Part shown: piece after piece, positions 38,791-51,705 of the stretch
How positions within the stretch are numbered: position 1 is the first letter of the stretch
How the letters are laid out: every line of letters starts with the position of its first letter
From: Bacteroidales bacterium
GTDB lineage: Bacteria; Bacteroidota; Bacteroidia; Bacteroidales; P3
Length of the DNA stretch: 64,000 nt
Assembly: GCA_017483575.1 (NCBI GenBank)
Contig: JAFUWF010000005.1
Span: 114 to 64,113, forward strand
Direction: 5' to 3'
Program-made: the position numbers and the translations under genes
Notes under the pieces: generated by a model
Databases searched by the model: none
What the model was told of the DNA's origin: nothing
The model's input: only the letters and a program-made list of their open reading frames with translations

Positions 38791-39410
38791 CGTCCTACCT
38801 GCATCTGCTGGCCAAAGGCCTGGGAGCCACGGTGCTGATAGCCCTGCTGTCGATCATCGGCGGCACACTGCTCGGCGCCGGCATCTATGCCATGACCCAA
38901 AGCCGACACACATGGGTGAAGAAGACCGCACAATGCTACCGCTTCATTGTCCGCGGCGCCCCCCTGACGGTGCTCATCCTGCTCTTCTACTATGTTGTCC
39001 TTCAGGGCACGGCAGGCATCCTGGCCGCCGTGCTGGCCTTCTCGATCAACTTCTCCAACTTCGCCTGCTCGGTCATCCAGTCGTCGTTCGGCACCGTAAG
39101 CCGCGGGCAGCTCGACGCCGCCACGGCCCTCGGATTCACCCGCCGCCAGACGCTGCGCTACATCATTGCACCGCAGGCCCTCGTCAACGCCCTGCCGGCC
39201 TACAAGTTCCAGGCCGTCACCCTGCTCAAGGGCACCTCCATCGTGGGCTACGTAGCCATCCTCGACCTCACGCAGGCCACCGAAGCCATACGCCAAGGCA
39301 CCGGCCAGTCGTTCCTGCCGCTGCTGCTCATCACCGTCATCTACATGATTATCGCCTGGTTGCTCTGCAATTTGCTCGACTACCTGGTCAAACATACCCA
39401 GAAGATATGA
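38763..39410 (+). CDS. Amino-acid ABC transporter permease (His/Glu/Gln/Arg/opine family)
   Basis: EAA-type loop (ATALGFTRRQTLRYIIAPQAL) and five TM segments. Overlaps the TBDR end by 28 nt. Confidence 0.8.
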   Translation: MLWSHPDLLTSYLHLLAKGLGATVLIALLSIIGGTLLGAGIYAMTQSRHTWVKKTAQCYRFIVRGAPLTVLILLFYYVVLQGTAGILAAVLAFSINFSNFACSVIQSSFGTVSRGQLDAATALGFTRRQTLRYIIAPQALVNALPAYKFQAVTLLKGTSIVGYVAILDLTQATEAIRQGTGQSFLPLLLITVIYMIIAWLLCNLLDYLVKHTQKI

Positions 39411-40492
39411 TCACCGTCTCGCACCTCACCAAGACCTTCACGCACGCCGACGGCACAGCCTTCCATGCGCTCGACGACATCTCGTTCCACATCGATGCCG
39501 GCGAGGTGGTGAGCATCATCGGACCCTCGGGGGGTGGCAAGAGCACCCTGCTGCGCGTCCTCAGCCTGCTCGAACGCCCCAACGGTGGCAGCATCCTCGT
39601 CCAGGGCGAGGACATCCTCGCCCCCTCCTACCCCCAGCAACGGCTGCGCAGGCAGATGGGCTTCGTCTTCCAGCAGTTCAACCTCTTCCCCCACCTCACC
39701 GTCCTCGGCAACATCACGCTGCCGCTGACCAAGGTGCTCGGCCTCTCCGGCAGCGAGGCCCGCGAGCGCGCCCTCGAGACCCTGAACCACGTAGCCCTGG
39801 CCGAGAAGGCCGACGAGCACCCCAACAACCTCTCGGGCGGACAGCAGCAACGCGCCGCCATAGCCCGCACCCTGGCCATGGGCTCGCGCATACTCCTTCT
39901 GGACGAGCCCACCTCGGCCCTCGACCCCACCATGGTCGGCGAGGTGCAGGGCGTGCTGCGCCTGCTGGCCAAAGACGGACTGACCATGCTCATCGTCACC
40001 CACCGCATGCGACTGGCCCGCGACATCGCCTCGCGCACCTTCTTCCTCCATCAGGGGCACCTCCTCGAGGACGACACCCCCAGCAACATCTTCAAGCATC
40101 CCAAGCATACTGAGACACAAACCTTTGTGCAACAGATACACTCCCTCCGGTTCGACATTGCCACGCGCCGCTTCGACTTCTACGACATGATGTCGCAGAT
40201 ACGCCAGTTCTGCCTGCGCTATGCCCTTCCGGAGAAGATGGACCCCATCACCCACATCGTCGAGGAGATGCTGCTCCTGCTGGGCAACTACCACAGCCCC
40301 GTACACATAGAGGTCAACCACAGCGAGTTGAGCGGAGCCTCCTCCGTGGTGATTCTGCACCAGGGCGAAACCCTCTCGCCCCTCGAACGCACCGATGCCG
40401 ACGAGCTGGCCGTCATGATCATACGCGGCATGAGTTCGCACATCGAAACCGACCTCACCCCCAACGGTGTCCGCCTCACCTTCGACATCTAA
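39407..40492 (+). CDS. Amino-acid ABC transporter ATP-binding protein with ~115 aa C-terminal extension
   Basis: ATGA overlap with the permease stop. Walker A GPSGGGKST, signature LSGGQQQR, Walker B LLLDEPTSALD. An additional unassigned C-terminal domain after about residue 245. Confidence 0.85.
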   Translation: MITVSHLTKTFTHADGTAFHALDDISFHIDAGEVVSIIGPSGGGKSTLLRVLSLLERPNGGSILVQGEDILAPSYPQQRLRRQMGFVFQQFNLFPHLTVLGNITLPLTKVLGLSGSEARERALETLNHVALAEKADEHPNNLSGGQQQRAAIARTLAMGSRILLLDEPTSALDPTMVGEVQGVLRLLAKDGLTMLIVTHRMRLARDIASRTFFLHQGHLLEDDTPSNIFKHPKHTETQTFVQQIHSLRFDIATRRFDFYDMMSQIRQFCLRYALPEKMDPITHIVEEMLLLLGNYHSPVHIEVNHSELSGASSVVILHQGETLSPLERTDADELAVMIIRGMSSHIETDLTPNGVRLTFDI

Positions 40493-40755
40493 GAAGTGTA
40501 ACCCCTCACTCCACACACCCCTCCCCCATCGAGCAGGAACCGGACTGCCATTTTGTCAGTCCCCAAAACCCGTTTTCTCCCACTCATCACCCACTTTGGT
40601 GGGAGTTGGTAGGGAGATGATAGGAAGTTGGTAGGGTGTTAATCGGTAAATGGCACCTATGGGACTGCCATTTTGTCAGTACAGGATACTGTGGCAAAAA
40701 GGGTGGCAAAATGTTTTTTTTCGACTTTTGTGGTTGTGGTTCTGGAAAAAAAACG

Positions 40756-40763
40756 TATCTTTG
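40756..40763 (+). promoter_or_regulatory. -7 promoter box (TATCTTTG) of the partner-switch/alarmone operon
   Basis: TAnnTTTG 43 nt upstream of the ATG at 40806. Confidence 0.5.
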
Positions 40764-40805
40764 CATTTTACAATAGATACCATATTATTTAATATTACAT
40801 TGTCA

Positions 40806-42593
40806 ATGAGCAACAAACTGACACAAGGATGGGACAAACTCCAGGCTCGCAGCAGCCTGATGCTTCTCATTGTTGCCGCGGTCATTATAGAGGTGATGGC
40901 TGTTGTGCAGTATGTCTTCGCCCGCGATGGCATCCGCAACGAGGTCGAACAACGTGCACGTACCGAAATCAAACTGAAGAACTTGGAGATACAGAACGTC
41001 ATCTCCGATGTCGAGGTGGCCATCAACAACATGCAATGGCTCATCGACTGGGCAGCTTCCAATCCGGATTCCATCTACAGTACCCTGCAACTCATCATCC
41101 ATAACAACCCCATCATCACGGGCTGCGCCATGGCGTTCGAGCCCAATTACTTCCCCTCAAAGGGCGAATGGTACGAGCCCTTTGCCGGACGTTCCAACGG
41201 GTTGACGGGCGACATTGTGCACCGCCAGATTGGCTCCGCAGAGCACGACTACCACAAAGCCACATGGTACCGCGAAGGACTCCACTCCACAGAAGGCCAA
41301 TGGACGGAGCCATACCCTGACGATGCCGGCTCGAAGATGATGGTAAGTTCCTACACCCTGCCCATCCACGACCGTAACGGCAAGGTTATCGGGGTGTTCT
41401 GCAGCGATGTGTCGCTGGAATGGCTGGCCGAACTCTTCGGCAGCCAGGCCGGAGCCTACACCTTCCTCACCTCGCGCACGGGTCGCTTGCTGGCATGCCC
41501 CGACAAGAGCATGGTGATGACAACCACCATCCAGGAGGTGGCCAAGCAGTTCAAAGACACCATGATAGACGTTGTCAATGCCAACATGCTGGCAGGCGAT
41601 TCCGGCGATGCCAGCGTCAAAGACAACGACGGACAGAAGAACTACATGTACTATGCCCCCGTCGAGGGCAAGACCGGCTGGAAAATGGCCATCATCTTCC
41701 CGGACAAGGAGATATACGCCGGCCTTCACAGCGTGGGCAAACGGCTGACCATCTTCATGATTCTCGGGTTGTTGCTGATGGCCTACATCATGTGGCGCAC
41801 CTTCCGTGGCCACAAACGCCTCGCCACCGTCAACGCCGAGAAAGAGCGCATAGGCAGCGAGTTGCGTATTGCCAGCGGCATCCAGATGGGCATGCTGCCC
41901 AAGACTTTCCCGCCCTACCCCGACCTCGACGAGCTGGCGATGTTCGGCTCCCTGGTACCTGCCAAGGAAGTGGGCGGCGACCTCTACGACTTCTACGTGC
42001 GCGACCGCAAGCTCTTCTTCTGCGTGGGCGACGTCAGCGGCAAGGGCGTTCCCGCCTCGTTGGTGATGGCGGTGACGCGCAGCCTCTTCCGCACCGTCTC
42101 AGCCCACACCGAGAGCCCCGAGCAGGTGATGACGCAGATGAACAACGCCATGTCCGAAATGAACGAGAGTTCGATGTTCGTCACGCTCTTTATCGGTGTG
42201 CTCGACCTCCACAGCGGGGCTTTGGCCTACAGCAATGCCGGCCACTGCCCGCCCGTGGTCATCACGGGCGGCAGCGTCATCCCCATCGAGATGGACGCCA
42301 ACATCCCCGTAGGCCTGATGCCCGACTGGCAATACAGCCTGCAGAGCACACACATCGATTCTGGAAGTACCATCTTCATCTATACCGACGGCCTCACGGA
42401 AGCCGAGAACGCAGAGCACCAACAGTACGGAGAAGAGCGCATGAACAGCACCCTGGCCGAAGTCGGCAACAAGTCGCCGCGCGAAGTCGTCGCCGCCATG
42501 ACCGACTCGGTCCACGCCTTCGTGGCCGGGGCCGAACAGAGCGACGACCTCACCATGCTTGCCATCCAGTTCATTAAAAACATAGACGTCTGA
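40806..42593 (+). CDS. Membrane sensor PP2C phosphatase (Cache-like extracytoplasmic domain plus SpoIIE/RsbU domain)
   Basis: Two TM helices flank a ~280 aa Cache-like region. C-terminal SpoIIE motifs (GGDLYDFY...CVGDVSGKGVPASLVMA...YTDGLTEA...DDLTMLAI). ATG at 40806 inside track ORF 40650-42593. Confidence 0.8.
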   Translation: MSNKLTQGWDKLQARSSLMLLIVAAVIIEVMAVVQYVFARDGIRNEVEQRARTEIKLKNLEIQNVISDVEVAINNMQWLIDWAASNPDSIYSTLQLIIHNNPIITGCAMAFEPNYFPSKGEWYEPFAGRSNGLTGDIVHRQIGSAEHDYHKATWYREGLHSTEGQWTEPYPDDAGSKMMVSSYTLPIHDRNGKVIGVFCSDVSLEWLAELFGSQAGAYTFLTSRTGRLLACPDKSMVMTTTIQEVAKQFKDTMIDVVNANMLAGDSGDASVKDNDGQKNYMYYAPVEGKTGWKMAIIFPDKEIYAGLHSVGKRLTIFMILGLLLMAYIMWRTFRGHKRLATVNAEKERIGSELRIASGIQMGMLPKTFPPYPDLDELAMFGSLVPAKEVGGDLYDFYVRDRKLFFCVGDVSGKGVPASLVMAVTRSLFRTVSAHTESPEQVMTQMNNAMSEMNESSMFVTLFIGVLDLHSGALAYSNAGHCPPVVITGGSVIPIEMDANIPVGLMPDWQYSLQSTHIDSGSTIFIYTDGLTEAENAEHQQYGEERMNSTLAEVGNKSPREVVAAMTDSVHAFVAGAEQSDDLTMLAIQFIKNIDV

Positions 42594-42596
42594 CCT

Positions 42597-43019
42597 ATGA
42601 AACGCCATCTGACCCTTCACAACGACATTCAAGAAGTGCCCCTGCTGGCTTCTTTCATCGACGAAGTGGCCGAAGCATGCGGCATCGACATGGCGCTCAC
42701 CATGAGTCTCAACCTCGCCATGGAAGAGGCCGTGGTCAACGTGATGAACTACGCCTACCCCAAAGATACCGTGGGCAATGTTGACATTGACGCGGAGTTT
42801 GCCGACGGCCGGTTGACTTTCGTCCTCAGCGACAGCGGTACCCCCTTCGACCCCACACAGGCTGGCACGCCGGACCTGACCCTCGAAGCCGAGGATCGCC
42901 CCATCGGAGGCCTGGGAATCTTCCTCGTCCGCCAGATTATGGACCACGTGGACTACCAGTACAGCGACGGGAAGAACATCCTCACCCTCAGCAAGAACAT
43001 TCAAACAATCAATCAATAA
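42597..43019 (+). CDS. RsbW/SpoIIAB-like anti-sigma-type serine kinase (HATPase_c_2)
   Basis: 140 aa. N box EEAVVNVMNYAY, G1 SDSGTPFDP, G2 GGLGIFLVRQIMD. Starts 3 nt after the phosphatase stop. Confidence 0.75.
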   Translation: MKRHLTLHNDIQEVPLLASFIDEVAEACGIDMALTMSLNLAMEEAVVNVMNYAYPKDTVGNVDIDAEFADGRLTFVLSDSGTPFDPTQAGTPDLTLEAEDRPIGGLGIFLVRQIMDHVDYQYSDGKNILTLSKNIQTINQ

Positions 43020-43041
43020 CGCAACAAAACAATCCCGAAAT

Positions 43042-43344
43042 ATGAATACCACCATCAAAGAACAGAACGGCGAACTCGTTGCCTTCTTCGAGGGCCGTCT
43101 CGACACCGCAGCAGCCCCTCAGGCCGAAAAGGACATCCAGCCCCTGCTCGCCAGCAACGGCAAGAACATCGTGCTCGACTGCAACGCGCTGGAATACATC
43201 TCCTCCAGCGGTCTGCGCCTCTTCCTCACGGTGCTCAAGAGCGCCAAGGCCAAAGGCGGACATGTCTTCATCACCGGCATGAACAACGACATCCGCAACG
43301 TCTTCTCCATGACGGGCTTCACCAACCTCTTCGAATTCCGCTAG
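43042..43344 (+). CDS. STAS-domain anti-anti-sigma-type protein (RsbV/SpoIIAA-like)
   Basis: 100 aa. The phosphorylatable-serine context (LEYISSSGLRLFL) is typical of STAS antagonists. Confidence 0.8.
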   Translation: MNTTIKEQNGELVAFFEGRLDTAAAPQAEKDIQPLLASNGKNIVLDCNALEYISSSGLRLFLTVLKSAKAKGGHVFITGMNNDIRNVFSMTGFTNLFEFR

Positions 43345-43345
43345 T

Positions 43346-44446
43346 ATGGACGCCCACAGCGAATCATTGCTCGAACAGTTCCGGCAACGGAAGCCTCTGC
43401 TCGTCGAGTTGGAGGCCATAGTGCTCCAACGTCTGCAAGAAGCCCTCAACCAGCAGCACATACAGGTGACGGCCATCGACCACCGTGTCAAAGAAGAACG
43501 GTCGCTGGCAGGCAAACTGGAACGCAAGGGTTCGAAATACAAGTCGATAGACGATATCACCGACCTCCTCGGCATTCGTGTCATCACGTTCTATACCGAT
43601 GATGTGGACAAGGTGGCAGCGTTGGTGGCTCAGATGTTCGACATCGACTGGAGCAACTCCGTGGACAAGCGCAAGCTGCACGAGCTGGACAGCTTCGGCT
43701 ACAACTCGCTGCACTACATATGCCGCCTGCCCGAGGGAGCGCCGGCAGAGCTATGCCGTATACCCTTCGAGATACAGATGCGTACAGCGTTGCAGCACGT
43801 GTGGTCCACCCTCAACCACGACACCGGGTACAAAAGCGACGTGCAGATTCCACGCGAGTACGTGAGGCAGTTCGGCCGCCTGGCGGGCATGCTGGAGCTG
43901 GTGGACAACGAGTTCAGCCGCCTGCGCACCTCGCTGGCCGACTACCGCCGCCGCATGCAGAGCCTCGTGGCTTCGGGGCAGCTGGAGGAGGTGCCGCTGA
44001 ACGCCGACACCTGGGACAACTACCTCCTGACGCACCCCTTCGACCGGCTGAACAACCGCATCGCCGCCGTCAACCAGGCCGAGGTGTTCCCGGCGCCGCT
44101 GCAGCCCTTCCTGCCCATTCTCATCTCCTTCGGCATGCAGACGCTGGGCGACGTGCAGCAGATGGTCGACAGCCAGTCGGACAACGCCTACCTCCTCGCC
44201 CTCTCGCGTGTCGGCCTCACCGACATCGACATCATCACCGAAAGCGTGGGACTGATGAACCTCTGCATCGTACATGCACTGCAGAACGGTGGCGGCACCC
44301 CCGCCGTCTGCCGCATATTGGACACCGTCAGCGGCGGAGCCCAGCCTGAGCTTCAGCGAACGGCCTGCGACCGAAGTGGAGCAAACGGTGCCCTCGCCGA
44401 GTCCATCGTCCGTCACGCCTCGTCACTCCCATTCATGCAGAGATGA
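43346..44446 (+). CDS. RelA/SpoT synthetase-domain protein (single-domain alarmone synthetase-like, 366 aa)
   Basis: Synthetase motifs are all present: HRVKEERSLAGKLERKG, DLLGIRVI, GYNSLHY, FEIQMRTALQHVW, HDTGYK. The ATG lies 1 nt after the STAS stop. Confidence 0.75.
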   Translation: MDAHSESLLEQFRQRKPLLVELEAIVLQRLQEALNQQHIQVTAIDHRVKEERSLAGKLERKGSKYKSIDDITDLLGIRVITFYTDDVDKVAALVAQMFDIDWSNSVDKRKLHELDSFGYNSLHYICRLPEGAPAELCRIPFEIQMRTALQHVWSTLNHDTGYKSDVQIPREYVRQFGRLAGMLELVDNEFSRLRTSLADYRRRMQSLVASGQLEEVPLNADTWDNYLLTHPFDRLNNRIAAVNQAEVFPAPLQPFLPILISFGMQTLGDVQQMVDSQSDNAYLLALSRVGLTDIDIITESVGLMNLCIVHALQNGGGTPAVCRILDTVSGGAQPELQRTACDRSGANGALAESIVRHASSLPFMQR

Positions 44447-45012
44447 ACACATCGCTACTCGACCGCGCCATCGTCTTCGCCGTCCGCGCCCACGCCGGCA
44501 CACCCCGCAAGGGGAAGAATTTCCCGTATATCGTCCACCCGCTGGAAGCCATGGCCATCGTGGCCACCATGACCGACGACCAAGAGCTGCTGGCGGCGGC
44601 GGCGCTGCACGACACCATCGAGGACACGGGGACCACCCGAGAGGAGCTGCAGCGGGAATTCGGCCCGCGCGTGGCCGACCTGGTGCAGGCCGAAAGCGAC
44701 ATCGAGGTGGACGGCCTGGGCCATGCTGCCAGTTGGCGCGAGCGCAAGCAGGTGGCACTCGACAGGCTGGCCAAGGCGCCACGCGAGGTGCAGATAGTGG
44801 CCCTCGGCGACAAACTTTCCAACATGCGAGCCATCGCCCGCGACTATGCCCGTCAGGGCGACGCCCTCTGGCAGATATTCAACGTCAAGGACCCCGCCCA
44901 GCATGCCTGGCGCTACCGCGCGCTGGCCGACACCCTCTCCCCCCTGGCAGACACCGAGGCCTACCAGGAGTTCAAGGCGCTTGTCGAGCAGGTCTTTACA
45001 GTTAAGAGTTAG
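44443..45012 (+). CDS. HD-domain protein of the SpoT/small-alarmone-hydrolase type
   Basis: HPLEAMAIV...AAALHDTIEDTG (H..HD..ED) motif; 189 aa. ATGA overlap with the synthetase gene. Confidence 0.7.
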   Translation: MNTSLLDRAIVFAVRAHAGTPRKGKNFPYIVHPLEAMAIVATMTDDQELLAAAALHDTIEDTGTTREELQREFGPRVADLVQAESDIEVDGLGHAASWRERKQVALDRLAKAPREVQIVALGDKLSNMRAIARDYARQGDALWQIFNVKDPAQHAWRYRALADTLSPLADTEAYQEFKALVEQVFTVKS

Positions 45013-45029: not shown

Positions 45030-45779
45030 TTACAGGATGTTGTAACATACCCCCACTGTGCCGTAGAGTGGGTAGAGGGGCTGTTCGACGGTGGAGAAAC
45101 TGGAGGGGAAGATTCCTGTGAGGCCAATGCCTAGGTCGAGGGATAAAGCCAATCGCGGCAGCGCCTGCCAGTCGACACCGAGCGTGATGCCCATTTGGAG
45201 TGAGCGCATCTCGTCGCTGAAGTCGTAGGTAGCCCAGGTGTCGGGAGTGTCGCCAATGGTAATCTTGGGGCCTGTGGGACCGCCTTGCCGCAGGTAGCCA
45301 TCACTGGCAGTGCCACTAAAGTCTTTCGTCAGCAGGAGCGACAGGTAGGGACCCGCCTTGAGGTGCCATTTGGGGGATGCTTGCCATAGGGCGTAGATGG
45401 GCACAGAGAGCATTGTGAGGCCCACCTGCTGACTGACGTGGCCGGTGAACACACCCTCGATGGCATCGGTGCCTTTGCGGAGTTCCATGTGATAGCTTTG
45501 GGCGCTGATGTCGGCGTCCATGGCCTTGCGTTCGTAGCGTAGGCCGACGGCCACGGCCCACCGCCCCTCCAGCCCGTAGGTGGCGTCGAGGCCGACGGCG
45601 AACGAGGGTGTGAGACGGAAGGCGTCGATGCCGCTCACGCCGTCGGGCACGCCTATCGGGGAGGTGGCGCCGACGCTGTAGCCGGCACGGGCGTGCAGAC
45701 GTATGCCTTCGCCGGCGAAGGCCTCTTGCGTAAGCATGCCGGCAAGCAAAATCAGAAAGGCCAGTCTATTTTTATTCAT
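45030..45779 (-). CDS. Porin-family outer-membrane beta-barrel protein
   Basis: Signal peptide, alternating hydrophobic beta-strand pattern, 249 aa. Overlaps the upstream gene by 8 nt. Confidence 0.6.
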   Translation of the reverse strand: MNKNRLAFLILLAGMLTQEAFAGEGIRLHARAGYSVGATSPIGVPDGVSGIDAFRLTPSFAVGLDATYGLEGRWAVAVGLRYERKAMDADISAQSYHMELRKGTDAIEGVFTGHVSQQVGLTMLSVPIYALWQASPKWHLKAGPYLSLLLTKDFSGTASDGYLRQGGPTGPKITIGDTPDTWATYDFSDEMRSLQMGITLGVDWQALPRLALSLDLGIGLTGIFPSSFSTVEQPLYPLYGTVGVCYNIL

Positions 45780-49205: not shown

Positions 49206-49589
49206 TTACTTGGTATTGCCTTGTTTCCTTATCTCCTCTTCCCGGTGCTGGACGGAGAGCGGCTGGCCCTCCTGCGAGAGGTAGAACATGTAGAGGACGG
49301 CGGGCACGGGGCCGCGGTTCTCGCCGTGGTGGATGGTGCCGACCATCTCGACAATGGGCTCGCCCTCATGGAGGGTCGTCTCGCGGCCGTCGTGGCAGAC
49401 GATGGTCAGCTCGCCCTGCACCAGGACGCCGTGGTTCATCACCGGATGGTGGTGCCAGCCGAGCCTCTGCCCGGCGGGAATCTCGTACCTGACGGCCACC
49501 AGCTCGGGTCGCCCCTGCGGGTAGTCGGGCAGCGCCGCGCCGTCCCAGCTCCGGCTGGTGTGCAGCAGTTCGGTGGTTGTTACGTTCAT
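49206..49589 (-). CDS. Cupin-domain protein
   Basis: GWHHHPVMNHGVLVQGEL...GTIHHGEN are the cupin motifs. 127 aa from the ATG at 49587-49589, with an ATGA overlap with the upstream gene. Confidence 0.75.
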   Translation of the reverse strand: MNVTTTELLHTSRSWDGAALPDYPQGRPELVAVRYEIPAGQRLGWHHHPVMNHGVLVQGELTIVCHDGRETTLHEGEPIVEMVGTIHHGENRGPVPAVLYMFYLSQEGQPLSVQHREEEIRKQGNTK

Positions 49590-51472
49590 CTGACTACGAC
49601 GATTTTCCGGGCCGGACGGGAGCCGATTTTGACCATATAGACGCCGGCCCGCAGCCCGCAGCCCGCAGCAGGCAGCAGGCGACCGGTGATGTCGAAGAGC
49701 TGGACGGGTTCGCCGTCGGCGCCGGTGATGACGAGGCGGCCGTCGCGGACGGCGATGCCGACGACCGAGTCGTCGGCCACACTGCCGATGCCCACGCCGT
49801 CGGGGGCGAAGTGGGCGACGAGGGTGGTGTCCGAGGTGAGGGTGAGTGTGCGGGGGTTGCTGGTGTCGCCGTCGCTCCAATGGTCGAAGCGGTAGCCGCT
49901 GGCGGCGGTGGCCTGGACCACGGCATCCTGCCCGCAGTCGGGCTCGGTGAGCACCTCGACCGTGCCCATGGCCTCGTCGTCCGAGAGGACATCGAGGGTG
50001 TACATCATCTCTTCGCTGAAGTTCTCAAAGCGGGTCCAGCCTGCGGCGTAGGACTCCTGGCTGCCGCAGGGGATGTGGATGGTGGCGGTGCGCGGCACGC
50101 CGTTGAAAGCCGTCAGCCCCAGCCCCGGCGCTGTGGCGGGCTTGGCATAGATGTCCGTCAGGCTTGTGCAGCCTATGAAGGCCGAGGTTTTAATCGAGTC
50201 CACCCCGGCAGGGAGGTTGATGCTGGTCAGCGACTCGCAGAAGGAGAAGACCCATCCCTCGATGGTGGTGACGCCCTCGGGGATGGTGACGCCGTCGAGG
50301 CTGGAGCAGTAGTTGAAAGCGGAGTTGCCAATCGTGGTGACGCCCTCGGGGATGTTGATGGCGGTCAGATTCCAGCAGAAGAAGAAGGCTTCGTCGCCGA
50401 TGGAGGTGAGGCCCTCGGGGAGGGTGACGCTGACCAGTTCGTCGTGCTCTGCGAAGGCACCCTGGCCGATGGCCGTGACCGTCGGGGGAACGGTGACCAC
50501 GCTGTCGCTGCCGAGGTAGAGGTTGAGGGTGGTGAAGGTCGAGTCGGCATAGACGAAGTCGCCGTCCGCCACGCCGTTCATGCTGTAGGCTCCCCAGTAT
50601 AGGTCGTCGTCCTCGTAGGTGGCGCTGCCGTGGTAGATAATTCGTCCGATAGAGAAGAAGGCGTAGTGGCCGATGGTGTCAACGCCGTCCGGCACGGTGA
50701 AGGGACTCAGGCTCTCGCAGCCCATGAAGGCCTGCTCGCCGATGGCCGTCACCGTGCTGGAGAAGCCCACACTGGTGAGCCCAAAGCAGAAGCGGAACGC
50801 CATCGCGCCGACCGTGGTCATGCCCTCGGGGAAGGTGACGGCGGCAAGACTGTCGTTGTTGTCGAAAGCCCTGGGGCCGATGACCGTGACCGTCGGGGGG
50901 ACGCTGACCGCCGAGTCGCTGCCGAGGTAGCAGGTGAGCGTCGTCAGCGTCGAGTCGGCGAAGACGAAGTCGCCCACCGTGACGCCGTTCATGCTGTGCG
51001 CCCCCCAGTAGATGCGGTTGGTCCATGTGGCGCTGCCGTGGTACTCGATGTGGCGGATGCCGTCGAAGGCATAATCCCCAATCACGGTTATCCAGTCGGG
51101 CACGGTGAGGCTCATAATCCCCCTGCAGGAGGAGAAGGCGTTGGCGCCAATCGTGGTCACCCCCTGCGGGAAGGTGACGCCCGTCAGGCCGTAGCACGAC
51201 GAGAAGGCGTGGTCGCCGATGGCGGTGACGGGGCGGTTCACGCCGCCGTGCAGCACGCTGTCGGGAATGACCAGCACCCCTGTGGGCTGTGTCTCGGAGC
51301 CCCAGCCCGAGCTGCCGGGGCGGACGATGGTCACGCCGCCCGTGCTGTCCACGTAGTCGTAGTAGATTGTCTGCCCCGACGGCGCCGTCACACTCCCGTC
51401 GTAGGCCATTGCGTTTCCGCTGGCGGCCATCATCATTGCCGCCGCTGCCATAAGTCGTAATGCTTTCTTCAT
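49586..51472 (-). CDS. BspA-type leucine-rich-repeat protein with T9SS C-terminal sorting domain
   Basis: Signal peptide MKKALRLMAAAAMMMAASGNAMA (start 51470-51472 inside track ORF). Many LRR_5 units (VTxIGxxAFxxCxxLTSIxxPxGV). C-terminal CTD-like ...GVYMVKIGSRPARKIVVVR. Confidence 0.8.
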   Translation of the reverse strand: MKKALRLMAAAAMMMAASGNAMAYDGSVTAPSGQTIYYDYVDSTGGVTIVRPGSSGWGSETQPTGVLVIPDSVLHGGVNRPVTAIGDHAFSSCYGLTGVTFPQGVTTIGANAFSSCRGIMSLTVPDWITVIGDYAFDGIRHIEYHGSATWTNRIYWGAHSMNGVTVGDFVFADSTLTTLTCYLGSDSAVSVPPTVTVIGPRAFDNNDSLAAVTFPEGMTTVGAMAFRFCFGLTSVGFSSTVTAIGEQAFMGCESLSPFTVPDGVDTIGHYAFFSIGRIIYHGSATYEDDDLYWGAYSMNGVADGDFVYADSTFTTLNLYLGSDSVVTVPPTVTAIGQGAFAEHDELVSVTLPEGLTSIGDEAFFFCWNLTAINIPEGVTTIGNSAFNYCSSLDGVTIPEGVTTIEGWVFSFCESLTSINLPAGVDSIKTSAFIGCTSLTDIYAKPATAPGLGLTAFNGVPRTATIHIPCGSQESYAAGWTRFENFSEEMMYTLDVLSDDEAMGTVEVLTEPDCGQDAVVQATAASGYRFDHWSDGDTSNPRTLTLTSDTTLVAHFAPDGVGIGSVADDSVVGIAVRDGRLVITGADGEPVQLFDITGRLLPAAGCGLRAGVYMVKIGSRPARKIVVVR

Positions 51473-51534
51473 TGTTGTGTTGCTATATATTATATTGTAT
51501 ATATACATTATTATACCTCTCTCCAATTTGCCCG

Positions 51535-51705
51535 ACAACGCCCCGAAGGGGCAGCGAGCTACTAGCCCAGGGCATCACCCTGGGTATCGGTATATTGTGG
51601 CATTTCTCGCCCCGAAGGGGCAAAAGCCCTAATAGGAAACAATGCTTTTGCCCTTTCAGGGCGTATGATACCTGCCTTCCACACCCAGGGCGTTGCCCTG
51701 GGCTA
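51535..51705. repeat. Cluster of GC-rich REP-like hairpins (3' side of the transposase gene)
   Basis: GCCCC-GAA-GGGGC occurs twice, together with CCCAGGG-CATCA-CCCTGGG, GCCCT-TTC-AGGGC and CCCAGGGC-GTT-GCCCTGGG. Confidence 0.65.

Follow-up and report, generated by a model that had tools for sequence, protein, structure and literature searches.

A putative partner switch encoded in one operon with a small alarmone synthetase and hydrolase in Bacteroidales

Partner switching, in which a PP2C phosphatase and a kinase act on a small antagonist protein, is known to control targets other than sigma factors. STAS proteins act on such targets in the SypA and BtrV systems (PMC8256260), and in the SiaABC system, partner switching governs the cyclase SiaD, with carbon availability as the input (PMC7647112). 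Here we describe an operon of five genes on a 64,000-nucleotide stretch of a Bacteroidales genome (contig JAFUWF010000005.1, assembly GCA_017483575.1; hereafter the window), which is a new combination of an RsbU/V/W-type switch, a RelQ/RelP-like small alarmone synthetase (SAS) and a small alarmone hydrolase (SAH). Because it contains no sigma factor, no GGDEF domain and no RelQ equivalog, the operon belongs neither to the classical sigma-factor switches nor to the Sia system, and its SAS is no member of RelQ. Judged from its sequence and its recurrent gene linkage, it is probably a partner switch that has the SAS, and not a sigma factor, as its output.

The nearest system in terms of wiring is SiaABCD of Pseudomonas aeruginosa, although this likeness does not amount to family membership. 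As is proposed for the operon described here, a membrane PP2C protein and a kinase set the phosphorylation of a small antagonist-fold protein, and this protein controls the second-messenger synthetase of the same operon in response to a nutrient input (PMC7647112). The output in P. aeruginosa is the GGDEF cyclase SiaD, whereas the window encodes a RelA_SpoT-type SAS together with a hydrolase. Furthermore, SiaC is phosphorylated on threonine 68, whereas the antagonist here is a canonical Pfam STAS protein with a serine motif, and its kinase is of the RsbW type (HATPase_c_2). In HsbR-HsbA-HsbD of Pseudomonas and SypE-SypA of Vibrio fischeri, a STAS protein likewise carries the output to a target that is not a sigma factor; HsbA, for instance, activates the cyclase HsbD. 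The input of these two systems comes through receiver domains and phosphorelays and their outputs are biofilm and cyclic di-GMP (c-di-GMP), whereas here the input domain is an extracytoplasmic dCache (5TMR_LYT in a second lineage) and the putative output is an alarmone synthetase. Kinase and PP2C functions share a single polypeptide in SypE (PMC8256260), and the same arrangement is seen in 28 fused PP2C-HATPase_c_2 proteins among the relatives of the operon.

With the RsbU/RsbV/RsbW-sigma B and SpoIIE/SpoIIAA/SpoIIAB-sigma F switches of Bacillus, the operon shares the same three protein families, the phospho-serine motif and the kinase boxes. However, there is no sigma factor within ~5 kb, and the SAS takes the position of the sigma-factor gene. 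Bacteroidota are not known to have sigma factors of the sigma-B/F type. The synthetase has its best sequence and fold matches in RelQ and RelP of Firmicutes (SAS1/SAS2, YjbM/YwaC), with which it has all catalytic motifs in common. RelQ and RelP are controlled transcriptionally and allosterically. The SAS of the window differs from them in its length of 366 aa, in an extra domain of ~170 residues, in an altered acceptor loop and in a score under the YjbM cut-off. Full-text literature searches returned no partner switch or STAS protein linked to an alarmone synthetase. The surveys of RelA/SpoT homologues (RSH) PMC3153485 and PMC7229694 do not mention such wiring, which may be listed without remark in their supplements, and it is not described in PMC11109978 or PMC12691689 either.

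The five open reading frames (ORFs) lie on the + strand between 40.6 and 45.0 kb of the window (Table 1). The first is open from 40650 to 42593 and most likely starts at the ATG at 40806 (MSNKLTQGW), which yields a protein of 595 aa. Counted from this ATG, the operon spans 40806-45012 with all genes co-directional, and a terminator scan of the + strand revealed no terminator-like site inside it. The next gene downstream (45030..45779), which encodes an outer-membrane beta-barrel, is convergent to the operon, which makes the five genes a natural unit of transcription. An initial annotation of the window, made from its letters and ORF translations, had described five genes with gaps of 3, 22, 1 and −4 nt, assigned a domain to each, credited the synthetase with all catalytic motifs and seen no sigma factor nearby. 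The ORF listing reproduces the gaps exactly, and Pfam and NCBIfam agree with all five domain calls. The catalytic motifs align with those of RelP/RelQ and are invariant in 57-81 homologues, and Pfam found no sigma-factor domain among the genes located from 35.3 to 51.5 kb, which covers ~5 kb on either side of the operon.

The first three proteins make up the switch. In the membrane sensor phosphatase, Pfam recognizes SpoIIE (3.7e-51, 174 bits against a cut-off of 25), MCP-like_PDC_1 (6.9e-22) and dCache_1 (1.2e-14), and the Cache region has a hydrophobic segment on either side. The PP2C motifs GGDLYDF, GDVSGKG, TDGLTEA and SDDLTM are at least 95% conserved when compared with 30 fused homologues, and the metal-binding aspartate motifs are intact. 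The phosphatase has its top NCBIfam match in SiaA, but at 55 bits, where the cut-off is 700, this match is too weak for an orthologue of SiaA. The kinase matches HATPase_c_2 of Pfam (2.6e-28, 99 bits against a cut-off of 27.4), and its N-box (EEAVVNV..YAY), G1 (DxGxPFDP) and G2 (IGGLGI) boxes are conserved in the homologue alignment. With 56 bits it remains far under the equivalog cut-off of 145 for NCBIfam RsbW and is thus no RsbW equivalog. The STAS protein is recognized by Pfam STAS (3.6e-18) and by NCBIfam ant_ant_sig (74.1 bits, above its cut-off of 53.45), and its putative phospho-serine motif YISSSGLR (ISSSGL) is conserved in 41 homologues. Phosphatase, kinase and STAS protein thus each carry the sequence features of an RsbU/V/W module, while the NCBIfam equivalog cut-offs for RsbW, SpoIIAB and SpoIIAA all lie far above the scores of the operon proteins.

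The fourth gene (43346..44446) encodes the SAS. Its sole Pfam domain is RelA_SpoT (5.1e-19, residues 46-165, 69.1 bits against a cut-off of 27), and HD, TGS and ACT domains are absent, which places the protein in the SAS class. The motifs RVKxxxSLxxKLxRKG, DxxGIRV, GYxSLH and EIQxRT...HxxGYK are those that align with RelP/RelQ, and their invariance was seen in two separate alignments, of 57 and of 81 homologues. A phmmer search against the PDB returned Staphylococcus aureus RelP and the RelQ proteins of Bacillus subtilis and streptococci at E ~1e-14, besides which there was just a marginal match to a long Rel (9s6k, E 0.81). The AlphaFold2 model of the SAS has a predicted local distance difference test score (pLDDT) of 81.7, and its top Foldseek matches are the SAS1/SAS2 entries 5dec, 5ded and 6ex0 (E 1e-8, template modelling score 0.75 over ~200 residues). 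By sequence and fold, the SAS is therefore nearest to RelQ/RelP. At the same time, its score of 64.9 bits against the NCBIfam model GTPPhKinYjbM, with a cut-off of 320, makes it no RelQ/YjbM equivalog, and the PKENGY of RelP that precedes GYxSLH reads LDSFGY, with the lysine replaced.

The C-terminal part of the SAS, residues 196-366, has no Pfam match. Modelled alone with AlphaFold2, it reaches a pLDDT of 86 and a predicted template modelling score of 0.84, and a Foldseek search with this separate model found no PDB fold match better than E 1.8. A profile of the domain, searched against 1.84 billion representative proteins, retrieved 135 clusters only, many of them fragments. In matches of ~350-390 aa the matched region is located at ~residues 200-350, and a Pfam scan of eight of the full-length matches placed RelA_SpoT in front of it in seven, the eighth being a 389-aa protein (P0168) without a Pfam match. 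The domain thus marks this SAS family and is a candidate regulatory or docking surface. That it mimics a sigma-factor domain or a known target of RsbW or STAS proteins is unsupported by the Foldseek result.

The fifth gene overlaps the SAS gene by 4 nt and encodes the SAH. Pfam recognizes HD_4 (1.6e-21, 77.1 bits against a cut-off of 27.2), and the closest solved structures are the small alarmone hydrolase entries 7qoe (4e-21) and 7qoc (1.9e-20). The motifs H..HP, LHD..ED and GDKLSNMR are conserved in 30 homologues, as expected of a stand-alone HD protein of the SpoT type. Taken together, the enzymes of the operon look functional from their conserved motifs.

Table 1. Features of the operon and its upstream region, in window coordinates.
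Feature	Coordinates	Strand	Basis
Promoter-like region: TTTG (40727-40730) and TATCTTTG (40756-40763)	40727..40763	+	sequence reading
Membrane sensor phosphatase, TM - dCache/PDC (periplasmic) - TM - PP2C/SpoIIE, 595 aa	40806..42593	+	Pfam
RsbW/SpoIIAB-like serine kinase (HATPase_c_2), 140 aa	42597..43019	+	Pfam
Single-domain STAS protein, anti-sigma-antagonist type, 100 aa	43042..43344	+	Pfam, NCBIfam
SAS, catalytic part (residues 1-195): RelA_SpoT fold and long helix	43346..43930	+	Pfam, phmmer, Foldseek
SAS, family-specific C-terminal domain (residues 196-366), ~170 residues	43931..44446	+	AlphaFold2 model, profile search
SAH, HD_4, SpoT-type, 189 aa	44443..45012	+	Pfam, PDB comparison

To place the operon among its relatives, one genome per GTDB species was scanned, which gave at least 541 loci with a SAS homologue. 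All linkage counts refer to the best 80 of these, with 55-75% identity to the SAS and mostly from rumen Prevotella/Xylanibacter and other Bacteroidales; partners were detected by tblastn with the five window proteins and by clustering of the flanking ORFs, within 6-kb flanks. In 45 of the 80 loci, the gene directly upstream of the SAS gene encodes a STAS protein; the two genes are separated by 5-93 nt, except in one outlier with 610 nt. Phosphatase, kinase and STAS protein occur together in 32 loci, the SAH is present in 32, and all five genes are found in 21. Phosphatase and kinase are fused in 28 loci into a protein of ~790 aa with the architecture dCache-HAMP-SpoIIE-HATPase_c_2 (Pfam on locus L052). 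The most common order is SAH-NMT1-PP2C/RsbW-STAS-SAS, for example in Xylanibacter brevis ATCC 19188 (L012), and besides the order STAS-SAS-SAH of the window we found STAS-SAH-SAS (L034) and SAS-SAH-PP2C/RsbW-STAS (L047). The fact that the genes stay together while their order is shuffled provides evidence of functional coupling, with the hydrolase as a frequent but movable member.

A neighbour-joining tree built from the SAS sequences shows the module in all deep clades but one. The adjacency of STAS and SAS is kept in L004 and L010, where neither kinase nor phosphatase was detected within the flanks, as well as in L009, where just a transporter lies upstream. Among the recurrent neighbours of the 80 loci, no conserved sigma-factor or transcription-factor gene was found, and a GGDEF domain was found neither there nor in the operon. 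The system is also present in the cultured strains X. brevis ATCC 19188, X. ruminicola Ga6B6 and D31d, and Prevotella sp. P6B1.

A second lineage was retrieved with P0200, a ~350-aa homologue from the C-terminal profile search. Over the full length, P0296 from this lineage shares 38% identity with the window SAS. We regard this lineage as Bacillota-like, because related proteins are named Lachnospiraceae and the loci carry strong Shine-Dalgarno sites, unlike the window. In one locus (L090), the SAS gene is followed by that of a STAS protein, 43% identical to that of the window and with the motif YVSSAGLR, and next by that of a 936-aa protein of the architecture 5TMR_LYT-HAMP-SpoIIE-HATPase_c_2. 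Loci L086 and L087 show the order SAH-SAS-STAS, and metagenome contigs show SAS-SAH-STAS-PP2C-RsbW (L094, L098, L104), RsbW-STAS-SAS-SAH-STAS (L099, L102) and PP2C-RsbW-STAS-SAS(-SAH) (L100, L118). The four functions are hence linked again in this lineage, with another sensor and in another order. The two STAS genes that flank SAS-SAH in L099 and L102 hint at two antagonists that compete for one output.

Sampling was also carried out from the STAS side, with four STAS homologues of 67-75% identity that were picked for their long contigs alone. In three of these four contexts (L174, L175, L176), the SAS gene is located immediately 3' of the STAS gene. The initial annotation had accepted that its proposal would fall if the gene order proved to be confined to this genome; the STAS-SAS pair, usually together with phosphatase and kinase, recurs in about half of the 80 genomes, in rearranged order, and beyond them in the 38%-identical second lineage and in the three STAS-side contexts, an outcome that favours the proposal. 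Further ties are provided by gene fusions. The synthetase precedes HD_4 in P0254 and P0359/P0375 and follows it in P0101, and these natural fusions make the description of the two enzymes as a split synthetase/hydrolase pair an apt one. In P0124, on a 23.8-kb contig and preceded by its own intergenic spacer of 140 nt, HATPase_c_2 is fused to the SAS. The fusions support the view that synthetase and hydrolase are functionally tied and, more weakly, that kinase and synthetase are.

Several other genes recur next to the module. A solute-binding protein of the NMT1/THI5-like type, ~320 aa long and with a signal peptide (Pfam 1.6e-26; L032:2045-3010), is encoded directly 5' of the Cache-PP2C gene in 28 of the 80 loci, L007, L011 and L012 included. 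This position suggests a nutrient signal, and the protein may be a co-sensor, supplying the ligand. The window has no NMT1 gene, and an ABC permease/ATPase pair is located upstream instead. A CitMHS/TrkA_C/Na_sulph_symp transporter of ~600 aa lies in or beside the module in 13 of the 80 loci (for example L025:3809-5608, L028, L060 and L074, as well as L175:3180-4970 from the STAS-side sample), sometimes between kinase and STAS genes, and a second cluster in L052 consists of PP2C, transporter and STAS without a SAS. The transporter is a possible second output of these partner switches. In addition, a cytidylate-kinase-like protein of ~212 aa (PF13189, 5.6e-46) is encoded beside SAH or SAS genes in 10 of the 80 loci (L055:1275-1913, L016, L033 and L050, among others) and could act on nucleotide substrates or products. 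Kinase genes of the APH family (PF01636) were seen between SAS and SAH on a Bacteroidales contig (L175:6429-7274) and, as two STAS-APH fusion proteins, on both sides of the module in L090 (802-1980 and 10958-end). In Lachnospiraceae-type loci (L083:6058-6546, L084:3843-4331), a SAS gene that follows ilvB/ilvN is overlapped by a conserved ORF of 162 aa without a Pfam match, which could encode a different partner protein in that sub-lineage.

In the mechanism we propose, the membrane protein would read an extracytoplasmic ligand through its dCache domain, in many relatives perhaps with the help of the NMT1-type binding protein. The ligand state would alter the PP2C activity of the membrane protein on the phosphorylated STAS protein, which the RsbW-like kinase would re-phosphorylate at the conserved serine (ISSSG). 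The phosphorylation state of the STAS protein would in turn set the activity of the SAS post-translationally, and this step could take one of two forms. In the slightly favoured one, the unphosphorylated STAS protein would bind the SAS directly, probably via the C-terminal domain, in the manner of SiaC-SiaD and HsbA-HsbD. We lean towards such direct contact because no other adjacency is as tight and persistent as that of STAS and SAS, and because in most relatives the kinase is part of the phosphatase protein, a fusion also seen in SypE, which acts through SypA (PMC8256260). In the other form, which follows classical RsbW logic and is pointed to by the kinase-SAS fusion P0124, the kinase domain would sequester the SAS until the STAS protein displaces it. 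Once active, the SAS would move pyrophosphate from ATP onto a purine nucleotide, most likely GDP or GTP to give (p)ppGpp, and the SAH would degrade this product and keep the signal transient, as in a cyclase/phosphodiesterase pair. We give roughly even credence to the full proposal that a phospho-serine partner switch directly gates a dedicated SAS via a C-terminal receiver domain. In rumen and gut Prevotellaceae and, independently, in Lachnospiraceae-like Bacillota, an extracytoplasmic ligand sensed through Cache, 5TMR_LYT or NMT1 would then lead to (p)ppGpp/(p)ppApp without the ribosome being involved, and a private hydrolase would provide the reset.

A number of observations weigh against a switch that is dedicated to the SAS. 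None of the four partner genes lies within 6 kb of the SAS gene in 25 of the 80 loci (~30%), one clade of 15-16 species in the neighbour-joining tree consists of stand-alone SAS, and second-lineage members ~40% identical to P0296 are mostly alone. The stand-alone proteins keep the C-terminal domain, so that this domain cannot be tied specifically to the switch; they differ from the switch-linked ones at one position (219), which makes the comparison uninformative, and their retention of the domain neither supports nor excludes a switch encoded elsewhere in the genome. The loci were ascertained through the SAS, and the STAS-side sample comprises four contexts only, among which the STAS seen on more contigs than the other three is the one that forms an RsbW-STAS pair without a SAS (L173). 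Paralogous switch modules without a SAS exist as well, as a divergent STAS-PP2C pair in L045 and as the PP2C-transporter-STAS cluster in L052, and the kinase-SAS fusion P0124 is a singleton sequence. Finally, the replaced lysine of the RelP PKENGY motif makes the acceptor nucleotide of the SAS uncertain, and PMC3153485, PMC7229694, PMC11109978 and PMC12691689 give no sequence rule for acceptor specificity.

Some of these observations would also fit an operon in which switch and SAS are merely co-expressed, or wired in reverse. The target of the switch would then be the CitMHS/TrkA_C transporter or a sigma or transcription factor encoded elsewhere, or the alarmone would feed into the switch, for example by binding to the STAS protein or the kinase. 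Anion transporters are a classical setting of STAS domains, and this reading draws on the transporter in or beside the module in 13 loci, on the SAS-less cluster of L052, on the RsbW-STAS pair of L173 and on the third of SAS homologues that lack the module and have the same C-terminal domain. However, the constant neighbour of this STAS family is the SAS and not the transporter (three of four STAS-side samples), and the adjacency of STAS and SAS persists in L004 and L010, where kinase and phosphatase go undetected within the 6-kb flanks, and in L009, which has the transporter only upstream. The association furthermore spans two phylum-level lineages with different sensors, a kinase-SAS fusion exists, and the cluster holds no conserved sigma-factor or transcription-factor gene. 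We therefore consider mere co-expression or reverse wiring unlikely. More improbable still is that the RelA_SpoT protein transfers nucleotidyl or pyrophosphoryl groups onto a protein, tRNA or metabolite, with the HD protein reversing the modification, which we regard as having very little chance of being correct. The low score against the RelQ/YjbM model (64.9 bits, cut-off 320) and the loss of the PK..N acceptor-site residues of RelP would agree with it, the C-terminal domain could be a substrate-binding module, and SAS enzymes that modify tRNA are known. Nevertheless, invariance extends to all motifs of catalysis and of the donor site, including the stacking Tyr/His of GYxSLH, genuine (p)ppGpp synthetases give the best matches in both sequence and fold, and the partner hydrolase is closest to characterized small alarmone hydrolases.

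The SAS-SAH pair could also be a toxin-antitoxin or abortive-infection module of the FaRel or CapRel type that causes growth arrest, with the switch as an added trigger. Toxicity would then arise through (pp)pApp synthesis or tRNA pyrophosphorylation and be neutralized by the hydrolase or by the C-terminal domain. In the toxic SAS (toxSAS) pairs such as FaRel/ATfaRel and in CapRel, the SAS likewise overlaps or abuts the SAH gene or has a C-terminal regulatory domain, and an SAH as toxSAS antitoxin is established (PMC7229694). The 4-nt overlap in the window fits this picture, as do the second lineage, where an SAH follows the SAS almost invariably if the contig continues, and the CapRel-like size of the C-terminal domain. 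CapRel is also among the Foldseek matches of the SAS (E 1e-6), but with a root-mean-square deviation of 15 Å, and in the phmmer search that gave RelP/RelQ at ~1e-14, no FaRel2, CapRel, Tas1/Apk1 or other toxSAS chain was found at E <= 1, which leaves no detectable sequence similarity to validated toxSAS structures and does not place the SAS in a validated toxSAS subfamily. A weak match of the SAS to the PADLOC candidate PDC-S33 is confined to the generic synthetase domain and occurs in every family member tested, and the other four operon proteins have no PADLOC match. The replaced acceptor-site lysine would suit a toxin, as would the presence of homologues on plasmids: some reside on Bacillus megaplasmids, and a 3.5-kb ColE1-type Klebsiella plasmid carries a two-domain homologue as its only cargo. 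However, an SAH is absent within 6 kb in 48 of the 80 loci and variably placed elsewhere, and the partnerless SAS in 25 of the 80 loci reside among unrelated chromosomal genes such as those for lactate permease and FAD oxidase, which is unexpected for a toxin. Moreover, the pair of the window is embedded in a sensory phosphorylation module that is chromosomal, conserved and not mobile, the Cache sensor and the solute-binding protein point to nutrient signalling, and no full-length homologue was found in phage records. Overall, we judge a growth-arrest module of this kind to be quite improbable, and a partner switch with the SAS as its output remains our preferred reading.

The plasmid-borne homologues are of interest in their own right. 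On the Klebsiella pneumoniae plasmid pZZW20-3.5K (L082, 436-1572), the position of the SAS homologue as the only cargo gene is a context typical of defence or addiction genes; the protein aligns well with the window SAS just over the N-terminal ~200 residues, with weak C-terminal similarity. A homologue on a Bacillus thuringiensis megaplasmid (L081:5010-5987) aligns over query residues 30-333. These plasmid proteins are 30-36% identical and stand-alone, and they are thus uninformative about the origin of the window locus, for which a phage or plasmid source was considered and set aside; no phage record covering at least 80% of the SAS was found. Membership in a defence system was likewise rejected, as the PDC-S33 match reflects the generic synthetase domain and is the same in all family members and in the plasmid homologues.

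The upstream region of the operon is an AT-rich intergenic spacer of 313 nt, which is preceded by an ABC-transporter gene pair (permease/ATPase). It contains TATCTTTG 43 nt 5' of the ATG at 40806. For the consensus TAnnTTTG, the window holds 19 copies where 10.4 ± 3.1 are expected, an about twofold enrichment that makes the site plausible as a Bacteroidota −7 element. The single promoter of the initial annotation stands to the extent that the motif is present and its consensus enriched, while the motif as such does not prove a promoter. A TTTG is located 25 nt upstream of it, a spacing that exceeds the Bacteroides consensus. A scan for sigma-70-type promoters was also run; such a consensus is not meaningful for Bacteroidota. 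The ATPase of the upstream transporter pair (39398-40492, + strand, 364 aa) has an ABC_tran domain that reaches to about residue 173, and its C-terminal extension, over 100 residues long, lacks a Pfam match. About 5 kb downstream, and unrelated to the operon, the − strand (49586-51538) encodes a 650-aa BspA-type leucine-rich-repeat surface protein with LRR_5 (1.9e-69) and an InlB B-repeat-like domain.

The known regulation of SAS enzymes operates through transcription, allosteric nucleotides or RNA, and that of long RSH proteins through ribosomes and metabolic partners. If the proposed wiring is true, it would be the first case of a SAS under post-translational control of the signal-transduction type and the first of a partner switch with an alarmone as its output. 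A phospho-switch that leads from a periplasmic sensor to a SAS would give stringent-type signalling a new input layer, and alarmone synthesis would join sigma factors, c-di-GMP cyclases and secretion systems as a class of partner-switch output. The C-terminal domain of the SAS, with neither a Pfam nor a PDB match, is a candidate for a new regulatory fold. With cultured hosts and small parts, the system is experimentally tractable. The module is common in dominant fibre degraders of the rumen and gut (Prevotella/Xylanibacter and Lachnospiraceae-like bacteria), and it could govern the slowing of growth or the persistence of these organisms when a particular nutrient runs out.

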